Positions 6,289 through 23,184 of a stretch of 23,690 bases of DNA are shown in pieces. A program made the translations under genes and the position numbers. The notes under the pieces were generated by a model. It searched no databases, was not told the DNA's origin, and saw nothing but the letters and a program-made list of their open reading frames with translations. The DNA comes from Nanobdellota archaeon (GTDB lineage Archaea > Nanobdellota > Nanobdellia > Pacearchaeales > GW2011-AR1). The stretch covers positions 1 to 23,690 of the forward strand of contig JAHIHG010000066.1 of assembly GCA_018898425.1 (NCBI GenBank), given 5' to 3'. The stretch's first letter is position 1. Each line of letters opens with the position of its first letter.

Positions 6289-9200
6289 TTAAAAAAATTC
6301 ACTAAGAGGTTTTTGCTTCTCCAATTCTTTCCCAAAAATACTCTCAATATATCTTTTTACAAGTTCAAGATTTTGCTGTACATATGGTGAAAGGTCATAT
6401 TTTTTTGCTAAATCCAATGCAGGTTCTAGATATTTTTTAATTCCTCCTTCATGAATTGTAAAAATTAATTTCCCATTGCATTTAGGACAAGTTCCTTTTA
6501 AGGGAGGTCTTCTTATTATTTCATTACAAGCAACACACCTAAATTCCTGCATTGAAAATTTTCTTAAATTACCTCTCAAATCCCTAATAAAATGTCTTTC
6601 AATTACAAGTGTTGCTGTTGCAGTAGTATCTGCTGCCCTTATTCTTTCAACAAGTTCCATCTGATGCTGAACCTTTTCCTGCATTGTGGCTAAAAGCTTA
6701 TAAGAAGAGCAAGGAACCCCGTTATTAAAATCTGTTGTGTCATGAGTAAACCCTGCCCCAATAAAAGGATTTTCTCCTTTTCTTAAAATCTCTTTAACAT
6801 TATGTATTTTTAATTTTGAAGAATGTTCTTTTTTTTCAGCAAGTTCATACAATTCCAAAGGATATTCATAAACAAATTCAAAATCAAGTATCTGATCATC
6901 AACTTCTCCTGCATCTATTTTAGCATTCAAAACTAAAGGAGCATCTTGTGTTCCTCCCCTGTGACTTGGCAAAAATTCTCGTGAAAAATTAAGCAAAACA
7001 TCTCCTAAAAGCATAATAGCTGCCTCATCTCCATCACACCTCGCATTTATAATTTGTTCCCCCCATAAAACATTTTTATCCTCTTCACTCTCCCATTCCA
7101 CTTCAAAACAATATGAAGGAATTTTTTCTTTAAAAAAAACAACTTCTTTAATTATATCTACAAAAATATCATTCTCTTTTTCTAAACTAAAAAATTTATG
7201 ATTATATTTAATTTTTCTTTTTCTGCAATTTTTAAATTCAACATTTTTTATTAAAGCCAATTTTCTTTTATTCGCCGGATTTAAAATTTTAACTATTCCA
7301 TAAAAATCTTCTCCACTATAAACAAGATGCTGAAGAATATGCTTTTTTGGTTCCTTATTAAGCTCTTTATATCTTTCTAAAACCTTTTTTCCAGGGAGTC
7401 GCTCATTAGTTTTGCTAAATCTTCCAAATAATCCGAATTTACAACCTAATAAAGAAATGCCATCAAGAAGCTTCCTGCTAACAGAATAAAAACAGATAAA
7501 TTTTCTTTTACCATATACAATAGTCCCATCACCATCAAAATAACAAGATAAATAAGCCCTTACTTTTTTTTCAGAAACATTAAAAATAATGTTTGGAACT
7601 CTTTTCTCATAAGCACCACCACCAGCATCAAAACAATATTTAAATAAATAATAAACAAGTTTATTGCAAATAGTGATTTTAGTTTTATCCTCGCCAAAAC
7701 TAGGAATTAATCCAAAAGCACCTTTGATTGAAGATTCCAATTTTCTCCTTTGCTCTTTATCTATAATCCTAAAACAAATTTGTGACACAGTTTTTGTCTG
7801 CCTAGAATGCCCTTCAGCAGAATAATAACCCAAAACATTCATTAAATCCTCACCAACCTTAAACATTAAATCCCATTTTTTATTATTAAAAATAGTTCTT
7901 ATCTTTGCTGTTTTGGGGATGTCTTGCCACTTCATCAAACCATGATCAATAAATTTAAGCACATGATTTAAAGGAACTAATTTATACCAATCAGATAAAT
8001 TATTAAAATCATTATTAATATTAAACAATTTAATAAATTTAGATATGCCTACTTTTTTTACTAATTTCTTAAAAAATTCTTTGGCATCAACAACTCTTAC
8101 TTTAAATAATTCTTTTTCAGGAAGATTCTCTGATAAAAGTTTTGGAAGAAAAACCTCTTCAATTAAATTACTCTTAACATCAAATTTATTAATTAAAGCT
8201 ATTCTGTCTCCTTTTTTTATTTCGCCTGCTTTTTTTACTTGAAAATTATTTTTTTTATCAAGATAAATAAATTTGTGCCTTGGGGTCATAACTTGTTCTC
8301 TTCCACTAGAAGTCTTTATCTTAACCCATTTTTCAGGCGGAGCTCCTTTAATAAAATATTTAATCTTTTTTTTCTTCAACTTCTTGCTTACAGGATCAAC
8401 CCCAAATGCATAAAGCTCTTTATCTAAATCAACCCTAATAGTACCATAAGAATCAATCTTTCTTGTCTTATGTCCCTTCTCAATTAAATTTTCAACATAA
8501 TTTCCTATTGCCTCATTTTTAACTTCTCCATTATCAGAATAAATAAAATTTGTCATAGGATAAACACAATCTCTTCTAATAGCTGCATGCATATATGGGC
8601 TGGCAAACAAACCCAAAGTATTTGAAAAACCAATAAATCTGCAAATAACTCCTGCACAATTATGAGGAGCCATACAAACACCTAATTGCCCCACTAAATC
8701 TTCTCTTTTTTTAACATTATAAAAAGATTTTAATTTATAAAAATTTACAAGCAAATCATCAACAAAATTACAAATATTCATAAAAACATCTTCTCCTTTC
8801 TCATCTATTGTTTGTGAAAAATTTGGAATAAGAACATCATGAGGCATTAACTCTAAAATTTGTTCTTCATTAACAAGCTCCTTTCCATGAATATCTTTAT
8901 CATAACCTAATTCTTTTAATTTTTTCACACTCGTAAAAATTTCTTTTGGTTTAAAACACACCAAGGGTAATTCAGTTGCATCAAATCTTATTGTTCCATC
9001 TTTATTTACTTGCAAATTATGTTTTGCTCTTAAAACTCCTTTTGAAAGATTTTCAAGAGCATGATTTGTTGAAGAAGTTGTTCTAATTCCTTTAATCAAA
9101 AGAGGAGATTCAGATTTAATTATATTTAATTTTTGAATAGCTTTGTCAAAATAATGCATTATATCTAAATCCTGAACACAATATTGCGTTCCTTCTTCTT

Positions 9201-11286
9201 TTTCTTCATTAACTCTTTTAAAAGATTTTTCCTTATTTTTATAAAAATAATATTTTTTCCTGCATTTTCCCCCACAATCTTCGCAACAAGGATAAATAGT
9301 TTCTTTCTTGCATTTTTCACAATAATAAAGAGGAAACAAGCTTCTTACTTTCCCCTCTTCACATGCAGCCTGCACACTCCTCAATCTTCCTCCTTCTTTT
9401 CCAATAGGAAATAAAACATTCGGGCTTCCTGCTAATTTTCTTAATTTTGCTTTTTCAGGCCTACCCATTCTTGTTCCAATAAAATCTCCTGCTTTGTCTT
9501 TTATTTCAAATTCTGAAAAAGAATTTATGATTTCTAAAATATCTTTATTTAAATCAAATGTTTCTTTGATAACAGAATTTTTAAGAGAAAAATCTGTATT
9601 ATTTAACAAATTTAAATTCAATCCAAGATTAGCCAACAAAGATTTACTATTTTCTTTATTTAAAACAACATTTTCAATACTAACCTGATGTTCAATACCT
9701 AATAACTCCAAAGCTCTTTTACCTAATTTAAATTTTTCTTGTTCTAGTTTGTTAAAAGGAAAAATTATCCTCCTGTCTCTTATTACAGAGTGATGTAACC
9801 AATCAATAAAATTTAAAAATTGCTCTTTAGAAATTTCAGTCCAGTAAAAAATAAAATTTGGATGCAAAGGAATTTTAAATTTCTGACTTAATTCAACTGC
9901 TTTTTCAAAATCAACATTAAAATAATCTATTTCATTTTCTATTTCCTTAGATTTTGTTCTTAAATTAAGAGCCCACCATTCCTCAACATAACCTGGTTTA
10001 ATCAAAGTTGCATTTCTATTTGCCAAATCGCTAAAAGGAAACAAAATATCCCCTAAATAAATAATTTCTTCAATATCTGGATAAATTTGTTTAGCTTCTT
10101 CTTTTGTTTTTATTTTTTTTACACTTCCGCTAATTAATTTCACAATAGGTCCTTCAATAGAATCGCAAGAAGTAGTTACACACCCTTTAGTTGGTTTTTC
10201 TATTTTTAATTGAGTTCCTATTGCAATAAATCCATCGGTAATAGCCATTGTAGCAGGATGAATAGAGGCAGCACTAAAACCTGACACCCTACTCCTACCA
10301 TACCTAAATCTAAAGCCTCCTGAACAAGAAGGATGCCCAAAAACAGGCCTTCCAGCAACTAAATCCTTTATATAAGTTGGAGAAGCATCTGCTTTTCCTT
10401 TTTCTCTTTTTTCATGTAATTTAATATAATCTTCTAAAAAATCAAAACCTGTTGTTTTAATTCCATTTTTTTTAACACCTGCCAATAGTCTAAATCCTTT
10501 AGCAGCTTTTTGAGCTAATCCTTCTGCTAAAATCAAACAAAAACCACTTCTAAGAAAATTAGTATTAACTCTCTCAAGATTTTTATAATTAGAAACCTCT
10601 AGTTTTTCAGAAGCATCTCCTGCAACCTGGATAGGAATATGCCTTGCTAAAAAAAGTGTTTCCTCTTCTGTAGGCATATATTGCAAATTTGTAATTCTAT
10701 CATGAAAATCCCGTAATTCTGCATAAGTTCTTTTTATCTCTTCTTCAGTTGCATCATATTTTGCATAACCAAACAATTCCCTTAGATAATCTATGAGCAT
10801 TAGCACAACACAAGAAGCAGTAGTTCCAGCACTTCTAATTGGTCCTGAAAAACAAGCAATAAAATAGTCTTTTCCTTCTCTTGTTTTACCTAATTTTAAT
10901 TCAGTAAAGCCTTCAATTGGAGAAGAAACAACTCCTAAAGTAACATATGCAAAACCAATTCTTATTCCTGCATCAATTGCCTGCAATAAAGTTTCAAACC
11001 CGCAAAATTTTTGTTTAGCCACCTCTTCTGCAATCTTAAAAGCCACAGTTGTATCTAATTTCCCATATTCTTTTTCTAATTCAAGAATTCTTTTTGCAAT
11101 TCCAGAATTCATCATTTGAGGATAAATAGTTGAAATCAATCCCACAACTTTTTCAGCCATAGACATTGCCAAAGGAATTTCAACCTTATCAACAGGATCT
11201 AGTCCCTTGCTTCTTGCCTCTTCAGCAAGCTCATAGACATTTCTAACTTCTTTTTCAATATTTTTAAAATATAATTCTGTGTTCAT
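6289..11286 (-). CDS. polC: DNA polymerase II (PolD) large subunit DP2, interrupted by an intein
   Basis: 1665-aa ORF.
- Active-site region: PYMHAAIRRD[intein]CDGDEAAIMLLGDVLLNFS, compared with remembered HAAKRRNCDGDED...LLNFS.
- Internal Zn finger: CEKC...CCEDCGGKC.
- C-terminal Zn finger: CVACN...CPKCNGK.
- The host protein without the intein is 1155 aa. Confidence 0.93.
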   Translation of the reverse strand: MNTELYFKNIEKEVRNVYELAEEARSKGLDPVDKVEIPLAMSMAEKVVGLISTIYPQMMNSGIAKRILELEKEYGKLDTTVAFKIAEEVAKQKFCGFETLLQAIDAGIRIGFAYVTLGVVSSPIEGFTELKLGKTREGKDYFIACFSGPIRSAGTTASCVVLMLIDYLRELFGYAKYDATEEEIKRTYAELRDFHDRITNLQYMPTEEETLFLARHIPIQVAGDASEKLEVSNYKNLERVNTNFLRSGFCLILAEGLAQKAAKGFRLLAGVKKNGIKTTGFDFLEDYIKLHEKREKGKADASPTYIKDLVAGRPVFGHPSCSGGFRFRYGRSRVSGFSAASIHPATMAITDGFIAIGTQLKIEKPTKGCVTTSCDSIEGPIVKLISGSVKKIKTKEEAKQIYPDIEEIIYLGDILFPFSDLANRNATLIKPGYVEEWWALNLRTKSKEIENEIDYFNVDFEKAVELSQKFKIPLHPNFIFYWTEISKEQFLNFIDWLHHSVIRDRRIIFPFNKLEQEKFKLGKRALELLGIEHQVSIENVVLNKENSKSLLANLGLNLNLLNNTDFSLKNSVIKETFDLNKDILEIINSFSEFEIKDKAGDFIGTRMGRPEKAKLRKLAGSPNVLFPIGKEGGRLRSVQAACEEGKVRSLFPLYYCEKCKKETIYPCCEDCGGKCRKKYYFYKNKEKSFKRVNEEKEEGTQYCVQDLDIMHYFDKAIQKLNIIKSESPLLIKGIRTTSSTNHALENLSKGVLRAKHNLQVNKDGTIRFDATELPLVCFKPKEIFTSVKKLKELGYDKDIHGKELVNEEQILELMPHDVLIPNFSQTIDEKGEDVFMNICNFVDDLLVNFYKLKSFYNVKKREDLVGQLGVCMAPHNCAGVICRFIGFSNTLGLFASPYMHAAIRRDCVYPMTNFIYSDNGEVKNEAIGNYVENLIEKGHKTRKIDSYGTIRVDLDKELYAFGVDPVSKKLKKKKIKYFIKGAPPEKWVKIKTSSGREQVMTPRHKFIYLDKKNNFQVKKAGEIKKGDRIALINKFDVKSNLIEEVFLPKLLSENLPEKELFKVRVVDAKEFFKKLVKKVGISKFIKLFNINNDFNNLSDWYKLVPLNHVLKFIDHGLMKWQDIPKTAKIRTIFNNKKWDLMFKVGEDLMNVLGYYSAEGHSRQTKTVSQICFRIIDKEQRRKLESSIKGAFGLIPSFGEDKTKITICNKLVYYLFKYCFDAGGGAYEKRVPNIIFNVSEKKVRAYLSCYFDGDGTIVYGKRKFICFYSVSRKLLDGISLLGCKFGLFGRFSKTNERLPGKKVLERYKELNKEPKKHILQHLVYSGEDFYGIVKILNPANKRKLALIKNVEFKNCRKRKIKYNHKFFSLEKENDIFVDIIKEVVFFKEKIPSYCFEVEWESEEDKNVLWGEQIINARCDGDEAAIMLLGDVLLNFSREFLPSHRGGTQDAPLVLNAKIDAGEVDDQILDFEFVYEYPLELYELAEKKEHSSKLKIHNVKEILRKGENPFIGAGFTHDTTDFNNGVPCSSYKLLATMQEKVQHQMELVERIRAADTTATATLVIERHFIRDLRGNLRKFSMQEFRCVACNEIIRRPPLKGTCPKCNGKLIFTIHEGGIKKYLEPALDLAKKYDLSPYVQQNLELVKRYIESIFGKELEKQKPLSEFF
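7039..8568 (-). mobile_element. 510-aa intein with a LAGLIDADG homing-endonuclease domain, inside PolD DP2
   Basis: - Cys1 (tgt, plus-strand aca at 8566-8568) begins CVYPMTNF.
- Block B TxxH: MTPRHKF.
- LAGLIDADG motifs: LMNVLGYYSAEGHS and RAYLSCYFDGDGTI.
- Block F/G: SYCFEVEW...NVLWGEQIINAR, followed by Cys+1 (7036-7038).
- The C-terminal blocks align with the remembered P. abyssi PolII intein end (NVIINENIVTHQ|C). Confidence 0.85.
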
Positions 11287-11296
11287 TTTTCTATTT

Positions 11297-11863
11297 TCAT
11301 CCTAATAACAACATTGCTGCCTCATATTTTAGTTTAATTAACTTTCTTGATTCTTCTAATTCAATTTGATTCCATTTATTTTGCAATTTATTTTTGATCG
11401 AATTTCTTGCTTCTTCTAAAGATTTCTTCTCATACACAAGAGTTGTAAGAAATTGTTTTGAGATGTTATTAAAAGCATCTAAACTATCTGCTTCTGCGAT
11501 TATCTTGGCCTCAATAAATTCTCTTTGATTATTTTCTTCTTGTGAACCCCTATGATTTAAAATACAAATTTTAATTTTTTCAATTTTTTCCTGTGGATAA
11601 TTTAATTCATTTAATTTTTCTTCAGCTATTTTTGCTCCAGTTATATGGTGGTTTTCTCTTCCAGAAATAATAGAGCCAATGTCATGAAGCCATGCAGCAA
11701 TTTCAACTAATTCAATATCAGCATTTAATTCTTCAGCCAATTTTTTTGCAATACTATGCATTGAAATAAAATGATATTTATATGCCTCAGGATAATTAGC
11801 ATTAGGCTTTTTACACTCTTCTTCTACAAATTTTCTAACCATTTCCACAATATTTTTTTCCAT
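11297..11863 (-). CDS. HD-domain metal-dependent phosphohydrolase
   Basis: 188 aa. Contains H...AAWLHDIGS (HD motif) and a later NHRG histidine. Its start overlaps the DP1 stop (TAATG). It sits between the two PolD subunit genes and ends in TGA. Confidence 0.75.
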   Translation of the reverse strand: MEKNIVEMVRKFVEEECKKPNANYPEAYKYHFISMHSIAKKLAEELNADIELVEIAAWLHDIGSIISGRENHHITGAKIAEEKLNELNYPQEKIEKIKICILNHRGSQEENNQREFIEAKIIAEADSLDAFNNISKQFLTTLVYEKKSLEEARNSIKNKLQNKWNQIELEESRKLIKLKYEAAMLLLG

Positions 11864-12483
11864 TATTCAAAATCCAAAATTTTTATTTCTCTTGTTTTTA
11901 AATTAAACATAGGCACCTTGCAATGGTCTGGTGTATTTCCAAATTTTTCCTGATAAGGAGTCATAGCTTCCCAACAAGAAGTTGAAATAACTAAAATATT
12001 ATTATAATACGCAACAGCGCTTTTGTGCGTATGAGCTGCAACAAAAATATCTGGAATGTCTTTTATTATCAAGGGATCTTTTTCAAGAGGAAAATACTGG
12101 ATAGATTTATGTGTTGGAGCTAAATGTCTATTTTTTAAAAGATATTTCATAATTTCCTCTGGGCAATTCATAGCTTTTTTTAAAATTAATTTAGAAACAT
12201 TATTTGCATAATAAGGAAAAGAAAACCCATGATAAGTCAAAATATCAAAACCTGAAAACCCCTCAATTGCTCCAATATTAACTTTGCAAGGATTAGTTGT
12301 TAAAATAACATTTTTCATATCATATAATGGCCAGGCATATTTTTCATCAAAAAGTGGTTGAGGCTCAATTAATCTAACACAATCATGATTTCCAGGAGAA
12401 ATTATTATAATAATATCTTCTCTTATTTGTTTTAATAACTCAACAAGCCCTAAAAATTGCTCTTCAAGGTCTTTTATTTCCAA
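11863..12483 (-). CDS. polB: PolD small subunit DP1, C-terminal fragment (calcineurin/Mre11-like phosphoesterase motifs III-V)
   Basis: Contains IIISPGNHD (the GNHD motif), TYHGF and AAHTHKS. DP1-like sequence continues in frame upstream to 12528 (DIITGIGNYPNQEKD), directly after the TGA at 12529-12531. The TTG start in the ORF track is probably not a real start. Confidence 0.8.
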   Translation of the reverse strand: MEIKDLEEQFLGLVELLKQIREDIIIIISPGNHDCVRLIEPQPLFDEKYAWPLYDMKNVILTTNPCKVNIGAIEGFSGFDILTYHGFSFPYYANNVSKLILKKAMNCPEEIMKYLLKNRHLAPTHKSIQYFPLEKDPLIIKDIPDIFVAAHTHKSAVAYYNNILVISTSCWEAMTPYQEKFGNTPDHCKVPMFNLKTREIKILDFE

Positions 12484-12528
12484 ATCTTTCTCTTGATTTG
12501 GATAATTTCCAATGCCTGTAATAATGTC

Positions 12529-13539
12529 TCAAACAATAAATAAATATTTTATTTTTTTTACTTCAGGGGTATTTGGAACCTTTCCATTTAAATAATCAAT
12601 AAATTTCAAAAAATTCTCCCTTAAAAATAACTTACTTCCAAAATGCAAATCCCCTATAAAAAGAATAGATTCATCAACCAAAGATTTTTTTCTTTCTAAA
12701 ATCATTGCTTCAGGAAAAATAACATCATTTACAAAAACAATCTCTTTATTACCAGAGCAATTAATACCAATAACAGAATCTAAAGTTATCTCTTCAGCTT
12801 TTTCATAAAGTTCTTTTTTAGAACTATTCACTAAAACTTTTATTTTTCCTGTTAAATCTTCTAATTCAAACAAAATGTTTTTATTTTTAGTTATTTTTTT
12901 ATCAGAAACAATGCCAATTATAGAAATGTTTTGCCTATTTTCTGAAATTTTATTAATTGAAACTAAATTTTTTAAACAAGAGTTTTCCTGTAAAATATTT
13001 TTTAATTCAACAAACCTATTTTTAAAATAACTAACAAAATTTTTTACTTCTAATTTTTTTCCAACAAAAGGTGTTGCAGACATAATTTTAACACTTTCAA
13101 AAGAATTTTGTTTTTTCCCAATATCAAAATTCATCGTTTTTTGGGTTTTTTTAATCTCTTTATCAATAGTGTCATTTATAGAATTGTTTATAGAATTGTT
13201 TATAGAATTATCTGTAACCTCTCCCTTACCAAAATCTTCTACAAATTTATTCACAATTTCTTTTTCTTTTATTATTTCTATGCTTAAACCAAGTTTAATT
13301 TTTAATTTATCTATTGTTTTCTTATTTTTATTAGGAATATTTAAAAAAATTTGTTCAACTTTCTCCTTGTTTTTATTTAAAATTTTTTTAGTTATGATTC
13401 TCTGGCTTGTTTGTTTTGTTATTTGTTCTATAAAAATCTTAATAGACTCTATGTCTTCAAACTCATTAAATAACTTTAAAAGATCATTATCTAATAAAAA
13501 TCCTTTATGTGAGCAAAAACTAAGTATTTCTTTATTCAT
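12529..13539 (-). CDS. polB: PolD small subunit DP1, N-terminal fragment (N-terminal domain, OB-fold region, phosphoesterase motif I), ending at an in-frame TGA
   Basis: - ILFIGDLHFGS is motif I (DxH).
- KYLFIV is followed by TGA exactly where the Gly of motif II (GDxxDG) is expected.
- The two fragments plus the linker give a collinear DP1 of about 558 aa.
- The start lies 5 nt downstream of the cdc6 stop. Confidence 0.85.
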   Translation of the reverse strand: MNKEILSFCSHKGFLLDNDLLKLFNEFEDIESIKIFIEQITKQTSQRIITKKILNKNKEKVEQIFLNIPNKNKKTIDKLKIKLGLSIEIIKEKEIVNKFVEDFGKGEVTDNSINNSINNSINDTIDKEIKKTQKTMNFDIGKKQNSFESVKIMSATPFVGKKLEVKNFVSYFKNRFVELKNILQENSCLKNLVSINKISENRQNISIIGIVSDKKITKNKNILFELEDLTGKIKVLVNSSKKELYEKAEEITLDSVIGINCSGNKEIVFVNDVIFPEAMILERKKSLVDESILFIGDLHFGSKLFLRENFLKFIDYLNGKVPNTPEVKKIKYLFIV

Positions 13540-13544
13540 TTTAT

Positions 13545-14756
13545 TTAGGTATAATTTAAAGAATCTTCAATTATTTTTTTTGCCTGTTCAATTATACCTT
13601 TAGTGATTGCTAATTTTATCTCCCTCATTCTTCCACCTCTTCCTTTTGAAATAACTTTTACATTAATTATTCCAAGCATATCAAACTCTTGAATAATATC
13701 ACTTATTCTTCTTTGTGTTAAAATTTCTGATTTATTTTTAAGACATAATTCTTGATAATTATTATAAACATCTCCTGTAAAAATAGGCTCATTTTTTTGA
13801 TTTTCATTTAATTTTATTATAGAATGTAAAACAAGTTGAAATTGTTTAGGCTCTGATTTAATAATATCTAAAATTTTATCTCTTTCTAATTTACTATTAG
13901 CCTCATCTATATGCCTTACATAAATTTTTTTAGAAGAATCTCTTTCAGCTAATTCTCCTGCAACCCTTAGTAAATCCAGGGCTCTTCTTGCATCACCATG
14001 CTCCCTTGCAGCAAAAGCAGCACATTTAGCAATAACCCCTTCTTGAACAACATTTTCCTTAAAAACCTCATCAGACCTTTTTTTTAAAATTTCCTGTAAT
14101 TGTAAGGCATTATAAGGTGGAAAAACTATTTCTTCTTCTGAAAGTGAGCTTCTAACTCTTGGATCAATATTTTCTAAAAAAGTTAAATCATTACTTATTC
14201 CAACAATACAAATCTGAGTTTTAGAAAGTTCAGAATTTAATCTAGTTAAATTATATAAAAAATCATTAGAAATTTTCTTAACAGTCTGGTCTATTTCATC
14301 AAAAATTAAAACAATTAACTGCTTTTCAGAATCTATAATTTCAATAAATTTGCTATAAACTGCTTGAGTAGGCAAACCAGTAGAAGGAACCTCTCCACCT
14401 AATTTTTTAATAAGTTCTGCTAAAATCCTATATTCAGTATCAGAAATTTTTTTTAATTTACAGTTTAAATATTTTATTTTTAATTTAAAATCATTATTTT
14501 CATTAACCCTTTTTAATAATTTATCCCTAACATATTTTATTGAAAGTGTTTTACCAGTACCTGTTTTTCCATAAAGAAACAAATTACTAGATTTTTCACC
14601 TCTTAACACAGGAGCAAGTATTGAAGCAATTTGTTTAATTTGTTCACTTCTATGAGGAATATCCTCTGGTTGATAATTATTTTGTAAAAGAGATTTATTT
14701 TTAAAAATCAAATTTTTATCAAAAGATTCAAATATATTGTCTAATTCTGTTCCCAT
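13545..14756 (-). CDS. cdc6: Orc1/Cdc6 replication initiator (AAA+ with C-terminal winged helix)
   Basis: - Walker A: LYGKTGTGKT.
- Walker B: LIVLIFDEID.
- Sensor and winged-helix region: GDARRALDLLR, and ...RGGRMREIKL at the C-terminus.
- It lies immediately next to the ORB-containing intergenic region. Confidence 0.93.
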   Translation of the reverse strand: MGTELDNIFESFDKNLIFKNKSLLQNNYQPEDIPHRSEQIKQIASILAPVLRGEKSSNLFLYGKTGTGKTLSIKYVRDKLLKRVNENNDFKLKIKYLNCKLKKISDTEYRILAELIKKLGGEVPSTGLPTQAVYSKFIEIIDSEKQLIVLIFDEIDQTVKKISNDFLYNLTRLNSELSKTQICIVGISNDLTFLENIDPRVRSSLSEEEIVFPPYNALQLQEILKKRSDEVFKENVVQEGVIAKCAAFAAREHGDARRALDLLRVAGELAERDSSKKIYVRHIDEANSKLERDKILDIIKSEPKQFQLVLHSIIKLNENQKNEPIFTGDVYNNYQELCLKNKSEILTQRRISDIIQEFDMLGIINVKVISKGRGGRMREIKLAITKGIIEQAKKIIEDSLNYT

Positions 14757-14801
14757 TTTTAATTTAAATAAAATAAATTAAAAAATTTATACAATAAGAA
14801 T

Positions 14802-14827
14802 ACACACACAGTGATTTCCTATGGAAA
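14802..14827 (+). repeat. ORB-like box 1
   Basis: acacacacagtgATTTCCTATGGAAa. Confidence 0.65.
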
Positions 14828-14901
14828 ATCTTTTAAATTTAAATCATTCGTCAATAAAAAATTAAGTTATTATATAAAGTCTTATAACTACTAAAAAAGA
14901 A

Positions 14902-14924
14902 AAACACCTAAATTTCCTATGGAA
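14902..14924 (+). repeat. ORB-like box 2
   Basis: aaacacctaaATTTCCTATGGAA. Confidence 0.6.
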
Positions 14925-15000
14925 TATGTTTTTTTATTTTTAAAATTCCTAATCCCTTAATACTTACTTTATTATCTTCTTTTGATTTTATACTCTTTTT

Positions 15001-15125
15001 TCTTTTTTATTATTATTATTATAATTATTATATACTATATTTTTTTATAATAATAATAATAATAATAATAAACTATATACTATATAATATATATAAATAT
15101 AAATTAAATATAAATTAAAAATTTC
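15001..15125. repeat. A/T-only duplex-unwinding-element candidate with inverted trinucleotide tracts
   Basis: (tta)n at about 15007-15030 and the complementary (taa)n at about 15046-15072, followed by tatata-type low complexity. Almost no G/C across the segment. Confidence 0.6.
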
Positions 15126-15145
15126 AAAAAATCCTTTTTAAATAC

Positions 15146-15174
15146 TTCCATACGAAATCAAAGGGTGAGTGTGT
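15146..15174 (-). repeat. ORB-like box 3 (inverted)
   Basis: The plus strand reads ttccatacgaaatcaaagggtgagtgtgt. The reverse complement is acacactcaccctttgATTTCGTATGGAA, facing boxes 1 and 2 across the A/T element. Confidence 0.6.
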
Positions 15175-15369
15175 TTTATTATTATATCTCTTTTTTATAA
15201 TTATTCTTCTTATTCTTATAATTATTAACATAATCAACGCATATTCTTTTTTTATAAGAATAATAAAGTAAAATTATTAAGAAATCTAAAATAACCTTTT
15301 GTAATATATACTTTTAAATCCATTTATTTTTACAGAAAAGTTTATAAAGAATTTACCTCTAAAATTAAT

Positions 15370-15646: not shown

Positions 15647-16072
15647 ATGAAAATTATAGGATTTAATTTTAACAAAATAAGTGCAGAAAAGACATCTAAT
15701 CAAATAAAAGAGTTAAAAATAACAACAAATATAGATATTTCTGAAATAAAAGAAATTGAATCTGATTTTTTAAAAACAAAAGAAGAGTTAATAGAAATAA
15801 ACTTCAAATACGATGTTGTTTATAATACAGATATAGCAAAAATAGAATTTAAAGGGAATTTAATAATCTCTTTAGAATCAAAATTAAAAAAAGACATATT
15901 AAAACAGTGGAAAGATAAAACATTATCTGATGAATTAAAACTACCTTTATTCAATGTTATTTTAAGAAAATCTAATTTAAGAGCTTTACAATTAGAAGAT
16001 GAGATGAATTTACCTTTGCATATATCTTTACCTATGTTAAGAAAAGAAGATAAAAAAGAGAAAAAAGAATAA
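15647..16072 (+). CDS. hypothetical protein (141 aa, acidic/lysine-rich tail)
   Basis: Clean ORF 16 nt after the PRC-barrel gene. I cannot name a family with confidence; a faint SecB-like C-terminal pattern is not enough to call. Confidence 0.45.
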   Translation: MKIIGFNFNKISAEKTSNQIKELKITTNIDISEIKEIESDFLKTKEELIEINFKYDVVYNTDIAKIEFKGNLIISLESKLKKDILKQWKDKTLSDELKLPLFNVILRKSNLRALQLEDEMNLPLHISLPMLRKEDKKEKKE

Positions 16073-16593: not shown

Positions 16594-17316
16594 ATGGAAA
16601 ATATAAAAAAAGCTTTTAGTAAAGTAAAAGAAGATATGATCTCTTTGAATTATGAAATTAATTCTTTAAAAAAGAATATTATAGAAAACAGAGCAAAAAT
16701 GATAGAAATGTGTGAAATTCTTAAGCAATTAAATGAAAAAATAATTCTTTTATCTGATAAAAAAGAAACTAAAGAGGACTTAGACACTTCGACAGACAGA
16801 CAGATAATTCAGACAGACAGACAAATACTTTCGACACATAATGAGCTTTTTAACCCTTTAAAACACCAAAATATACCTATTTCCATTGGAAATGAAGGGG
16901 CTTCGACAGACAGACAGACAGACACTTCGACAGACAGACAGACACAAAATATGCCTAAAAATGAAGAAAAAAGCTATATAAGAGATGCTTTAGATATTAT
17001 AAATTCCCTAGATGATTTAAAAAAAGAAATGAGGTTTAAATTTAAAAGACTTACAGAGCAGGAATTTTTAGTTTTTTCAACAATTTATCAATTAGAAGAA
17101 ACTATCAATAAGGAAGATTCTTTGAATTACAGGGTTCTTTCTGAAAAACTTAATTTAACTGAAAGTTCTATTAGAGATTATGTCGGAAGATTAATAAAAA
17201 AAGGTATTCCCGTCGAGAAAAAAAAATTAAATAATAAAAACATAATTCTTTTTTTATCAAAAGATTTTAAAAAAATGATTTCTTTACCTACTCTTTTACA
17301 ATTAAGAGATTTATAA
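16594..17316 (+). CDS. coiled-coil / STDRQ-repeat / C-terminal winged-helix DNA-binding protein
   Basis: - N-terminal heptad-like segment: FSKVKEDMISLNYEINSLKKNI.
- Central (S)TDRQ repeats, encoded by (GACA)n DNA.
- C-terminal wHTH: LTEQEFLVFSTIYQLEE...LSEKLNLTESSIRDYVGRLIKKGIPV. Confidence 0.6.
   Translation: MENIKKAFSKVKEDMISLNYEINSLKKNIIENRAKMIEMCEILKQLNEKIILLSDKKETKEDLDTSTDRQIIQTDRQILSTHNELFNPLKHQNIPISIGNEGASTDRQTDTSTDRQTQNMPKNEEKSYIRDALDIINSLDDLKKEMRFKFKRLTEQEFLVFSTIYQLEETINKEDSLNYRVLSEKLNLTESSIRDYVGRLIKKGIPVEKKKLNNKNIILFLSKDFKKMISLPTLLQLRDL
16786..16944 (+). repeat. tetranucleotide (GACA)n tracts inside the CDS
   Basis: gaca x3.5 at 16791-16804, agac x3 at 16811-16822, gaca x5 at 16905-16924 and gaca x4 at 16929-16944. 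Three of these are preceded by cttc. Confidence 0.85.
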
Positions 17317-17524: not shown

Positions 17525-18136
17525 TTAGTCTTTTTTAGTCTTTTTTCTTAACTTAACACTCACTTTTGGCTTTTTAAGCATCTGTTCCTTTACACTTTCA
17601 GGTATAAAAATCCTTTTTTTACCATTTTTCTCTATTTTCTCTTGAATTAAACCCTCACTTTTCTGTTTTATACTATTTATTTGGCCTCTTATAGTAGATC
17701 TCTCTTTCCCCAGTACAGCAGCTAAATCATCATAGCTAAGCTTCATATCACTGTTTAACAAGATCCATAAAATAGCTCGTTCAGTTATAGAAAATTGCTC
17801 TAATTTTGGTGTTTGGACAGCTGTTTGGACAGCTGTTTGGACAGCATAAACAGCTGTTTGTTTATTAAACAGCTGTTTAGGTGTTTTAAACACGCTGTTG
17901 GGTTTTAAGTCATTCATAATTGAAAATATATTTTTTAATCCTTCTATCTCATTTTGTATCGACGATAAAACCTCTTTTATCTCTTCTACTTCTTTTTTTT
18001 GCATATTTTTTTCAGAATCAAGGTGTTTAATCCACCCGCTTACAGCAGTTATATCTTTTTTTACAGATTCAAAACTTGTTTTTGTATCGTCTTTTAACTT
18101 TTCAATCTCTTTTTTTCTTTTAAACAAACCAAACAT
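17525..18136 (-). CDS. coiled-coil / TAVQ-repeat / C-terminal winged-helix DNA-binding protein (same architecture as 16594..17316)
   Basis: - N-terminal coiled coil: FESVKKDITAVSGWIKHLDSEK...EIEGLKNI.
- Central repeat: TAVYAVQTAVQTAVQT.
- C-terminal wHTH: ITERAILWILLNSDMKLSYDDLAAVLGKERSTIRGQINSIKQKSEGLI. Confidence 0.6.
   Translation of the reverse strand: MFGLFKRKKEIEKLKDDTKTSFESVKKDITAVSGWIKHLDSEKNMQKKEVEEIKEVLSSIQNEIEGLKNIFSIMNDLKPNSVFKTPKQLFNKQTAVYAVQTAVQTAVQTPKLEQFSITERAILWILLNSDMKLSYDDLAAVLGKERSTIRGQINSIKQKSEGLIQEKIEKNGKKRIFIPESVKEQMLKKPKVSVKLRKKTKKD
17811..17875. repeat. 12-nt tandem repeat (gtttggacagct x3) plus further AAACAGCTGTTT palindromes inside the CDS
   Basis: CAGCTG occurs at 17818, 17830, 17851 and 17870. 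A degenerate cacgctgtt lies at 17891. Confidence 0.85.
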
Positions 18137-19457: not shown

Positions 19458-19934
19458 ATGACTATATTTTTTATATCTGGAGCAGAAGGTGTTGGGAAGA
19501 CAACAATATTAGGACATTTAATAAGAGAATTGCCGGATAAAGATATTCATGATTTTGATGAGATTGGAGTTCCAAAAAATCCTAAATTAAGCTGGAGATA
19601 TAAAACAACAAAACATTGGCTAAAAATAGCTAAGAATAATGAAAAAATTGGAAAGGATACAATTATTGTGGGATTAAGTTTTCCAAGCGAAATTATAAAA
19701 TTTTCAAAGAAAAAGAATTTTCATTTTTGTTTGTTTGATATTAGTATAAACGAGCGAGAAAAAAGATTAAGAAAAAGAAAATCTACAAAAGGAGTAATAG
19801 ATGATTTAGAACAATTAAAACAACTAAGGGAAGAATTTAAAAAATTAAAATCAAAAAAGATTATTAATATTTCTCATTTAACTCCTAAAGAAATTTCTTC
19901 AAAATTAATTAAATGGATTAATAGCTTAAAATGA
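19458..19934 (+). CDS. P-loop NTPase / small kinase-like protein
   Basis: Walker A ISGAEGVGKTT at the N-terminus. Its size and layout resemble nucleotide-kinase-like AAA proteins. Its TGA stop overlaps the recombinase ATG (ATGA). Confidence 0.65.
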   Translation: MTIFFISGAEGVGKTTILGHLIRELPDKDIHDFDEIGVPKNPKLSWRYKTTKHWLKIAKNNEKIGKDTIIVGLSFPSEIIKFSKKKNFHFCLFDISINEREKRLRKRKSTKGVIDDLEQLKQLREEFKKLKSKKIINISHLTPKEISSKLIKWINSLK

Positions 19935-20695
19935 CCCCAAACAAACCATTAGCAGCAATCTATGTCCGAGTTTCAACTCAAGACCAAGCTCAGCATGGAT
20001 ATTCCTTAAAAGCCCAACAAGAAGCACTAGAAAATTATTCTAAAGCATTGGGATATGAAATATTCAAAATATATAAGGATGAAGGAAAATCTGCAAAAAA
20101 TATGAACCGCCCACAAATGATTAAAATGTTAGAAGATGCTGAAAGCAAAAAGTTTTCAGCTATTTTTATTTATAAGCTTGATAGATTTTCAAGGAGTGTT
20201 GTGGATGCAATATTAACAATTGATAAATTAAAAAAATGGGGGATTGATTTTGTTTCAATGCAGGATAAGATAGAAACTGCATCTGCCACAGGAAAGTTAA
20301 TGTTCCATATGATTTCTGCCTTTGCAGAATTTGAAAGAAATATGATCGGAGACCGAACAAAATTTGGGATGGAAAGAAAAGTAAAAGAAGGAGGGTTTAT
20401 TACAAAAGCCCCAAAAGGATACAAACTTGTAGATAAGCAACTTGTTCCTAATGAGGATTCTGAAAATTTATCTAAAATTTTTGAAAAATTCTTTAATCAA
20501 AGCATAAGTTTAACACAATTAGCTAAAGAAAATAACATGACTGCTTCTGGTATGAAAAAATTACTCCAAAATACAACATATATAGGAAAAGTTAAATTCG
20601 CACATGAAGAGTCTCAAGGAAATCATCAGCCTATCTTATCTAAACAGCTGTTTGAACAGGTTCAAGATAAAATTAAACAGCTTGGATGGAGTTAA
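19931..20695 (+). CDS. serine recombinase (resolvase catalytic domain plus recombinase domain; no zinc-ribbon/coiled-coil C-terminus)
   Basis: - Catalytic domain: AAIYVRVSTQDQ (catalytic Ser motif), DEGKSAK, KLDRFSRS, AEFERNMIGDRTKFG.
- Recombinase-domain pattern: Y.GK..F.....QGNHQPILS..LF..VQ.
- It is only 254 aa long. Confidence 0.9.
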   Translation: MTPNKPLAAIYVRVSTQDQAQHGYSLKAQQEALENYSKALGYEIFKIYKDEGKSAKNMNRPQMIKMLEDAESKKFSAIFIYKLDRFSRSVVDAILTIDKLKKWGIDFVSMQDKIETASATGKLMFHMISAFAEFERNMIGDRTKFGMERKVKEGGFITKAPKGYKLVDKQLVPNEDSENLSKIFEKFFNQSISLTQLAKENNMTASGMKKLLQNTTYIGKVKFAHEESQGNHQPILSKQLFEQVQDKIKQLGWS

Positions 20696-21253
20696 ATGAG
20701 AATTTTACCAAAAACTTTTAATGAGGCATTAAATTTGGTTTGCAATATTTTAATTCAAGGAGATTCTAGGTATAATAATTCTGAAAATGAAGTTTTCTTA
20801 GCCAACTCAATATTAAATGAAATAATTAATTTAGAGGAAAAAGAAATTCCAAAAATAAACAAACCAAATGAAAACAATTTATTGAAAATGGGTTATGTCC
20901 AAAAACATGAAAAATATGTGGCAAAAATACTTCTTAAACAAAATGGTTTTCAAGATAGCGAAATATTTTTTGAGAGGAGATTTAGGGGATCAAGACCTGA
21001 TGTTTTAGGGGAAAAAGAAGAGGCATTTATCCCAGTTGAATGCTGTTCATGTAGAATAGATAAAATCATTGACTATCTCCAAGAATCAGAAGAAGTTTGG
21101 ATTATAACAAGAGAATTTTGTAATGAAGAAATGAAATGGTTTGTTTTTAAAAAAGGATTAAATTGGCAGAGATATTCTAAAATTAAAAAAATACAACAAG
21201 AAAAACTAAAAAGAATTAAATCACCTTTAGATGATATCATGGGCAGAAAATAA
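20696..21253 (+). CDS. hypothetical protein, possible PD-(D/E)xK-like nuclease fold
   Basis: Starts immediately after the recombinase stop (TAAATG). The segment HEKYVAKILLKQNGF...RPDVLGEKEEAFIPVECCSC loosely resembles the E...PD...(D/E)x(K) layout of Hjc/restriction-type nucleases, but the Lys position is not conserved. Weak call. Confidence 0.45.
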   Translation: MRILPKTFNEALNLVCNILIQGDSRYNNSENEVFLANSILNEIINLEEKEIPKINKPNENNLLKMGYVQKHEKYVAKILLKQNGFQDSEIFFERRFRGSRPDVLGEKEEAFIPVECCSCRIDKIIDYLQESEEVWIITREFCNEEMKWFVFKKGLNWQRYSKIKKIQQEKLKRIKSPLDDIMGRK

Positions 21254-21286
21254 TCAAAATAAAAAGCCCAATAGATAGTTTATAAA

Positions 21287-21430
21287 ATGAAACTCAAAAA
21301 CCCAAAAGTTGTAATTTACTCAATTATTGCATTATTCTGCTTAGTTTTATCTTTTATAGTTGATTGGTTATTTATTATTCCTGCAGCAATCTTAATGTAT
21401 TTAAATCAAAAAGAATTAATGAAAAAATAA
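21287..21430 (+). CDS. possible 47-aa membrane peptide
   Basis: Manual read: MKLKNPKVVIYSIIALFCLVLSFIVDWLFIIPAAILMYLNQKELMKK*. It stops 1 nt before the next ATG. Confidence 0.3.
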   Translation: MKLKNPKVVIYSIIALFCLVLSFIVDWLFIIPAAILMYLNQKELMKK

Positions 21431-21431
21431 A

Positions 21432-21980
21432 ATGAAAACTAAATGTATAAAATGCGGATTTGAGTCAGAGGAAAATTTAGAGAAATTCAGAGTTCCTATA
21501 TGCAATATTTGTTTTAGATTTGCTCCAAATAGTGAAGATAAATTTAAAGAATATGTTTCTGAAAAAATAGAAAGTTTATGCTTGGATTCTTTTAGAAAAT
21601 TTTCTGAACTAGGAAATCCTCAAAAAAAAGCTATGATTAAAAAAGCCTCACAGGGAAATTTTATGTCAAGAGCAGCTTTTGGATATAAAATTCAAAATAA
21701 AAAATTAATTCTTGCTGAAAATTTTAGAGAAATTCAGGAAATTTTTGAAGAATTTTTAAATCAAAACATAAGTTTAACACAATTAGCCAAAAAACACAAT
21801 TTTTCTGTTAACGGGTTAAAAAAAATACTGACAAATTTTACTTATTTAGGTAAAATAAGATTTAATAATCAAATACATCAAGGGAATCATCAACCTCTTG
21901 TCTCTTCAACTTTGTTTAATCATGTACAAAACAAGCTTGAAAGATTAAAATCAAATAAAAATTGCAAAATAGAGGAATAA
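21432..21980 (+). CDS. Zn-ribbon protein carrying a recombinase domain paralogous to 19931..20695 but lacking the serine-recombinase catalytic domain
   Basis: - N-terminus: CIKCGF...CNIC (CxxC..CxxC).
- C-terminus: FLNQNISLTQLAKKHNFSVNGLKKILTNFTYLGKIRFNNQIHQGNHQPLVSSTLFNHVQNKL aligns with FFNQSISLTQLAKENNMTASGMKKLLQNTTYIGKVKFAHEESQGNHQPILSKQLFEQVQDKI.
- DNA 21759-21787 matches 20495-20523 at 28 of 29 positions. Confidence 0.65.
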   Translation: MKTKCIKCGFESEENLEKFRVPICNICFRFAPNSEDKFKEYVSEKIESLCLDSFRKFSELGNPQKKAMIKKASQGNFMSRAAFGYKIQNKKLILAENFREIQEIFEEFLNQNISLTQLAKKHNFSVNGLKKILTNFTYLGKIRFNNQIHQGNHQPLVSSTLFNHVQNKLERLKSNKNCKIEE

Positions 21981-22029
21981 TAAAACTTGAGTATAAAAAC
22001 ATTTTAATAGTGTTTTTGCATTTAGAATT

Positions 22030-22374
22030 ATGGAAAGAAAAAGATTAAATTCAAAACTTAAATATCCTCAACCACACAGCATTCACATTGATACAGGCAA
22101 TTCTGCTCTTAATGCAAGAACTATAGATTATTTACATGCAAAAGCCAAGCATAAAGCAAAATTAACTCAGAAACAAAGACGAACAGAAAAAAGAAAAGAA
22201 ACTATCTTAAATCTTGCCTTAGAAGAAAAAATTTATTGCATATCTCATAAAAGATTTCTTTCACCAGAGAGTGTTCTTGAACATAAATGTTATATAAGGC
22301 ATGGAAATCCTCCTGTTTGCAAATATCTTTATTATGAAAATTCAAAAAAACAATTGAAGAGATATCAAAAATAA
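22030..22374 (+). CDS. hypothetical basic protein (114 aa)
   Basis: Lys/Arg-rich ORF with scattered Cys/His (CISH...HKCYIRHGNPPVC). It is convergent with rps9. No family recognised. Confidence 0.4.
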   Translation: MERKRLNSKLKYPQPHSIHIDTGNSALNARTIDYLHAKAKHKAKLTQKQRRTEKRKETILNLALEEKIYCISHKRFLSPESVLEHKCYIRHGNPPVCKYLYYENSKKQLKRYQK

Positions 22375-22790: not shown

Positions 22791-23184
22791 TTTGTTTTGA
22801 AAGGTGATTTAAGCTAATAAATTTATTATTTTTCTTTTTTCCTGCAAATATTTTTTCAGATTTTTCAAATTCTTTTGGAATTTTATCATAACATTTTATT
22901 TTTGTAAATGCATCTTTTCCTCGCCCTTTTCTGTGGTCTGGAAGCATCCCCCTAATAACTCTTTTAACAATTTTTTCACTTATTCTTGAATGTTTTGGCC
23001 CTTTTTGACTGCTTCCTACCCTTGATCTTTTTTCCTTAAATTCTTTTTCAATATTTTTTTTACTGCCTGTGATTATAACTTGTTCGCAATTTAATATAAT
23101 TATATCCTCTCCTTTTAGCGCTTCTTTAGCAGCATAACTAGCTAATCTTCCTAAAACAGCGTTTTTTCCGTCTATTATTTTCAT
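22780..23184 (-). CDS. rpl13: 50S ribosomal protein L13 (uL13)
   Basis: IDGKNAVLGRLASYAAKEALKGE.I.I.N.E...ITG and ...RGMLP are typical of archaeal uL13. Its position between L18e and S9 is canonical. Confidence 0.92.
   Translation of the reverse strand: MKIIDGKNAVLGRLASYAAKEALKGEDIIILNCEQVIITGSKKNIEKEFKEKRSRVGSSQKGPKHSRISEKIVKRVIRGMLPDHRKGRGKDAFTKIKCYDKIPKEFEKSEKIFAGKKKNNKFISLNHLSKQNGK

Follow-up and report, generated by a model that had tools for sequence, protein, structure and literature searches.

The stretch of DNA analysed here, called the window, comprises 23,690 nucleotides of contig JAHIHG010000066.1, and its GC content is 26.7%. The organism is a Pacearchaeota-type DPANN archaeon; the nearest database relatives of its DP1 are annotated as Pacearchaeota, Nanoarchaeota or Woesearchaeota, all of them DPANN archaea. 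On the minus strand, the central part of the window holds a replication cluster of classic archaeal type, in which the two subunits of DNA polymerase D (PolD) are encoded together with Cdc6/Orc1 and an HD-domain protein (Table 1). The catalytic domain of the large subunit DP2 is interrupted at residues ~956-1397 by an intein with a LAGLIDADG homing-endonuclease domain, and this intein is also found in L001, a relative that is 90% identical to the window. The cluster of L001 carries two extra genes, a HIT-family gene between cdc6 and DP1 (8627-9049), cleanly absent from the window at 13540-13544, and a gene for a 193-aa protein between the HD gene and DP2 (11261-11842), cleanly absent at 11287-11296. 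Genes have thus been gained or lost inside the replication cluster at only ~10% divergence.

Table 1. Genes of the replication cluster, the two parts of the DP1 frame and the positions at which the window differs from the ERZ27247124 contig.
Feature	Coordinates	Strand	Remarks
Cdc6/Orc1	13545..14756	-	immediately upstream of DP1
PolD small subunit DP1	11863..13539	-	558 codons + TAA; intact except one TGA
DP1 5' ORF, standard code	12529..13539	-	336 aa; N-terminal domain, OB fold, motif I (DLHFG); ends ...KYLFIV
DP1 3' remainder, same frame	11863..12528	-	Asp338 of motif II, motifs III-V (GNHD, YHG, HTH)
HD-domain protein	11297..11863	-	ATG overlaps DP1 TAA; ends in TGA
PolD large subunit DP2 with intein	6289..11286	-	1665 aa; N-terminal, central and catalytic domains
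Difference from ERZ27247124 (stop)	12531	+	window A, contig C
Difference from ERZ27247124	15711		window Glu (GAG), others Gly (GGG); residue 22, 141-aa protein of unknown function
Differences from ERZ27247124	17289 and 17292		both synonymous

Upstream of cdc6, an ORB-like element of the form ACAC..GATTTCCTATGGAA(A/T)AT is present in two direct copies (~14802-14829 and ~14905-14927) and a third, inverted copy (~15144-15174). These copies flank a (TTA)n/(ATA)n stretch of 18% GC at 15003-15120, and the GC skew changes sign near 15000. A replication origin probably lies in this region, at 14757-15369. Elsewhere in the window, repeats occupy 16788-16944 and 17810-17908: (GACA)n runs occur inside the gene of a 240-aa HTH protein, and a perfect 12-nt x3 repeat (TGTTTGGACAGC), with 19-nt repeats after it, lies within ORF 17525-18136 of the minus strand, at its 5' end. 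A serine recombinase with Resolvase and Recombinase domains is encoded at 19931-20695, among small ORFs without a family match (19458-22374), and this segment may be an integrated mobile element. The L001 version of the recombinase region is arranged differently, with an extra HNH/Recombinase gene.

From its N-terminal domain, the DP1 protein continues through a low-complexity linker and an OB fold into a calcineurin-like phosphoesterase domain, which carries motifs I-V. With Gly placed at the stop, the Pfam families DNA_pol_E_B and Metallophos match residues 292-507, across the junction. The OB family tRNA_anti-codon matches residues 206-260 (E=6.9e-6) at 26.3 bits, just under the curated cut-off of 27, and the OB region of DP1 aligns with that of 6KNB. 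Solved DP1 chains from Thermococcus and Pyrococcus were matched at E=5e-78 to 1e-66, with 6KNB (E=5.2e-78) and 5IHE (E=2.1e-68) covering residues 137-557. Residues D297, H299, D338, N384, H437, H503 and H505, after the seven-metal-ligand set of DP1 (PMC4996933), are invariant in an alignment of 16 sequences that includes the window (alignment A1). Judged by its predicted protein, the gene is a typical representative of the DP1 family, in which every testable defining feature was found. The DP1 linker contains NSINNSINNSIN, encoded by a perfect 12-nt x 2.9 tandem repeat at 13175-13209 that the 89-90%-identical orthologue P0001 lacks.

Translation of the whole DP1 frame gives a sole internal stop, at codon 337 (window 12531..12529, minus strand), in the context KYLFIV*DIITGIGNYP; the flanks of the codon can be written YLFIV-X-DIITGIGNYPNQEK. 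At ~12549..12499 the minus strand reads aaa tat tta ttt att gtt TGA gac att att aca ggc att gga aat tat cca, and past the TGA the frame stays open as far as the TAA at 11865..11863. In alignment A1 the column of the stop holds Gly in 15/15 orthologues and stands directly before the invariant Asp338. Gly337 itself is no metal ligand; the ligand is the next residue, Asp338, whose counterpart is D407 of P. abyssi DP1 (PMC4996933). The aligned segments are 'iiGGDVVDGVGIYPGQ' in 6KNB and 'fivGDiitGiGnYPnQ' in the window. Much of this had been proposed in an initial annotation made from the window, and most of that proposal stood. The TGA was borne out when the minus-strand sequence quoted there was re-read, the naming of the gene as PolD small subunit DP1 is upheld by the Pfam and solved-structure matches, and the orthologue alignment places the stop on the Gly of the GD motif, as had been claimed. 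The further claim that the frame continues to 11863 free of other decay is likewise correct, since one lesion only is present. For motif II, a Gly before the Asp had rightly been expected, but the full form GDxxDG had not: the orthologue alignment and the species representatives show that the clade carries GDxx[T/A/S]G. The second Asp of motif II (window 12514-12531; loci L010-L089) is replaced clade-wide, with all metal ligands kept.

Contigs of the same population were found by exact look-up of the neighbouring Cdc6 and HD proteins, and they come from five samples: ENA ERZ27247124 (55 kb), Logan SRR9644742, Logan SRR6516051, ENA ERZ27247113 and ENA ERZ27247111, the first four of which span the site. 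These four assemblies are 99.4-99.98% identical to the window, and a 558-aa gene is called on each. Codon 337 is GGA in 4/4 of these independent assemblies, in a 63-nt context that is otherwise identical, so that the single GGA>TGA substitution suggested at the outset is confirmed. GGA in the reads had been named as the refuting outcome, and GGA is what these assemblies, the closest proxy for the reads, show. On the + strand, position 12531 is A in the window and C in the other assemblies, which corresponds to G>T on the coding strand. Over 20,567 aligned bases, the window and the ERZ27247124 contig differ at 4 positions, the stop among them (Table 1).

With L001 as the outgroup for polarising alleles, the T responsible for the stop is a derived base and occurs in the window alone. 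At 15711 and 17292 it is the window that keeps the ancestral base and the other assemblies that are derived, which shows that the window represents a genuine, slightly different haplotype; the Glu/Gly difference at 15711 is a natural polymorphism in which the window allele matches the outgroup. Position 17289 is another derived substitution on the window lineage. Within DP1, the stop is the only difference between the window and assemblies L003 and L004, while L005 and L006 differ from these two at 3 and 4 positions, respectively, all of them synonymous transitions. Among the DP1 differences of the population, the stop therefore stands alone, both as a non-synonymous change and as a transversion. 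Against L001, dN/dS amounts to 0.25 in the part of DP1 before the stop and to 0.057 in the part after it, and the latter value indicates strong purifying selection on the part 3' of the stop. Neither the window's 336-aa fragment nor the 141-aa protein with the window-specific E22 has an exact match in public gene tables, and a DNA pattern with G or T at the site had no match in GTDB species genomes or JGI metagenomes. The intact 558-aa protein is absent from the cluster collection searched. The window's own haplotype is in no collection searched, hence the exact strain has no replicate.

The same picture was obtained among wider relatives. All of the listed DP1 homologues (120/120) are full length, at 516-603 aa, and no fragment ending at FIV occurs among the matches listed, of which the closest is P0001, with 89% identity by BLASTP and 90% in alignment A1. 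Eighty species-representative genomes were examined, and motif II was readable in 76. Codon 337 encodes Gly in every one of these 76, as GGA in 44, GGG in 17, GGT in 13 and GGC in 2, and TGA in none; L001 and L002 also have GGA at the site. The comparison with orthologues that had been put forward as a check on the stop thus returned a Gly codon throughout, with TGA private to the window record. These data establish that the TGA is a one-off substitution private to one record.

One way to keep a full-length DP1 would be for UGA to be read as an amino acid at codon 337, whether as Gly (code 25), as Trp (code 4), as selenocysteine or by programmed read-through. The position of the stop coincides exactly with that of a Gly codon, and reassignment of UGA to Gly is known from bacteria, in the low-GC Gracilibacteria and their relatives (PMC6851277); the low GC content of the window would be in keeping with it. 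However, in-frame TGA was counted once in the 7,062 codons of the 26 window genes, against 348 GGN and 46 TGG codons. The additional in-frame TGA codons for which the initial annotation had suggested a search did not turn up in the window, where codon 337 is the only case; DP2, with its 1665 aa, has none. TGA instead terminates five window genes, two of which have an ATGA stop/start overlap (19931-19934 and 23181-23184). Among the genes that end in TGA is a GTPase gene (1340-2254), in which the match to the Pfam TGS domain runs to the very end of the domain, at residue 303 of 304. The HD gene ends in TGA in its L001 orthologue as well, and 6/21 called genes of L001 do so, with ATGA overlaps again present. 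A reassignment like that of code 25 was rejected, since TGA is rare in frame, is used as a terminator and is not shared with relatives.

The more specialised forms of recoding fared no better. The window holds no tRNA gene, and Rfam, SECIS included, gave no match in the window at the gathering score and none at E<=1 over 11200-13700. Cys never occurs at the position of codon 337 in the homologues, which always have Gly there, and selenocysteine insertion was rejected on both of these grounds. The 100 nt 3' of the TGA fold somewhat better than shuffles (z=-2.5), which could be taken to favour read-through. The other assemblies have this sequence unchanged next to GGA, however, so the fold is no adaptation to the stop. 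Programmed read-through was rejected because the stop is conserved in no relative and its flanking context is identical in the GGA copies. A literature search for UGA recoding in DPANN archaea found no report, only bacterial (CPR) and Asgard cases. With TGA missing from the same population and from the related species that could be read, decoding of UGA as an amino acid at codon 337 is extremely unlikely. The organism reads TGA as a stop, and its population carries GGA (Gly) at codon 337.

Another reading takes DP1 as a functional split gene, whose two polypeptides assemble into the active subunit. Both ORFs lie in one frame with no gap between them, and the nearest start codon that this frame offers past the stop is a TTG at 12483, 46 nt downstream. 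The range 12484-12531, under which the event had been annotated, extends from the TGA down to the base before this TTG (12483..12481), which opens the downstream ORF listed at that time. As the TTG lies beyond Asp338, a functional active site could not be regained by re-initiation; the two pieces would be without residues 337-352, the metal ligand included, and the break would fall inside a core motif of the phosphoesterase fold. Nor is a split conserved in any relative, and none of the four assemblies that span the site is split. The split-gene reading was rejected for the loss of Asp338 and for this lack of conservation, and its probability is close to negligible.

Two accounts of a private TGA in a gene read with the standard code are left to be weighed. 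In the first, an otherwise normal DP1 would carry a G>T change in coding orientation (C>A at 12531 of the + strand) through a wrong base, introduced during sequencing or when the consensus was built, or through a minority variant captured in the consensus, and the TGA would not be a feature of a living lineage. In the second, the TGA would be a real and very recent nonsense mutation that cuts DP1 after residue 336 and inactivates PolD; such an allele could be deleterious and caught before its loss, or be sheltered by polyploidy, a second copy or another polymerase. Decay of a longer-standing pseudogene was rejected, given a single lesion, no other difference from the intact copies and the low dN/dS downstream; a very young pseudogene status of DP1 is possible.

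Some observations argue for a real allele. As a natural haplotype, the window stands apart within its species and is ancestral at 15711 and 17292, so that a true mutation of this strain is possible in principle, and the derived substitution at 17289 shows that real changes have occurred on the window branch. A single lesion without decay is also what would be expected of a very young mutation. Substitution errors are rare in assembled consensus sequence at good coverage, which likewise counts against an error. On the other side, G>T / C>A changes are the artefacts that oxidative damage classically leaves in sequencing libraries, and a lone non-synonymous transversion would fit a change that selection has not filtered. 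The allele is seen in no other assembly, and DP1 is under purifying selection (dN/dS 0.06-0.25), with population changes that are otherwise synonymous only. An N-terminal piece and a piece begun at the TTG would, moreover, both be without the ligand Asp338. Archaea are described as needing PolD for replication (PMC6741145, PMC7594292), and this too speaks against survival of the allele.

An error is favoured by the strong selection on DP1, where all real variation consists of synonymous transitions, by the described requirement for PolD, and by the consideration that a stop in a core motif is likelier to come from an unfiltered error than from a substitution that survived. We therefore rank an error above a real young nonsense allele, as the most likely origin of the TGA. 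A base error or captured minority variant is probably, on the balance of these points, the source, while a genuine nonsense mutation is a tenable but clearly less probable one. The initial annotation had left three options side by side, a very recent event, an error, or read-through and recoding. The first two agree with a TGA that is private to the record; the third is contradicted by GGA in 4 assemblies, by Gly in 76/76 readable species and by TGA as a terminator.

It is very improbable that a strain truly carries UGA at Gly337 and survives, be it by near-cognate read-through, at a low level that still yields enough full-length DP1, or by replication without a functional DP1. A strain that did survive without the PolD small subunit, perhaps through a family-B polymerase or the support of its host, would amount to a knock-out made by nature, in a polymerase considered essential. 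An archaeon that reads UGA as Gly would have been without precedent, as would one that lives without DP1; neither is shown by the evidence. The locus holds nothing novel, and the fitting entry for it is that of a probable error in the record or of a private nonsense allele. The record should not be annotated as a DP1 pseudogene or as a case of an alternative code unless reads support it.

Compared with known systems, the gene resembles the DP1 of Thermococcus kodakarensis (6KNB) and Pyrococcus abyssi (5IHE), with which it has the OB fold and the calcineurin/Mre11-like phosphoesterase domain in common. All metal-ligand positions of known archaeal DP1 are kept, and the window gene is encoded beside DP2 and Cdc6. 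It differs from them in motif II, which is GDxxDG in Thermococcus DP1 (6KNB) and GDxx[T/A/S]G in the Pacearchaeota-type clade, and the record differs in having TGA where Gly337 is expected. The window shares with code 25 of Gracilibacteria/Absconditabacteria a UGA where homologues have Gly, a low-GC genome and an ultra-small organism. Unlike code 25, it has a single such codon in a single record, TGA ends its other genes, and its relatives and its own population have GGA. No difference distinguishes the window from an ordinary nonsense allele or consensus error in metagenome-assembled sequence: as in such cases, there is a single private substitution that runs against the direction of selection, free of decay, and a transversion amid variation that otherwise consists of transitions.
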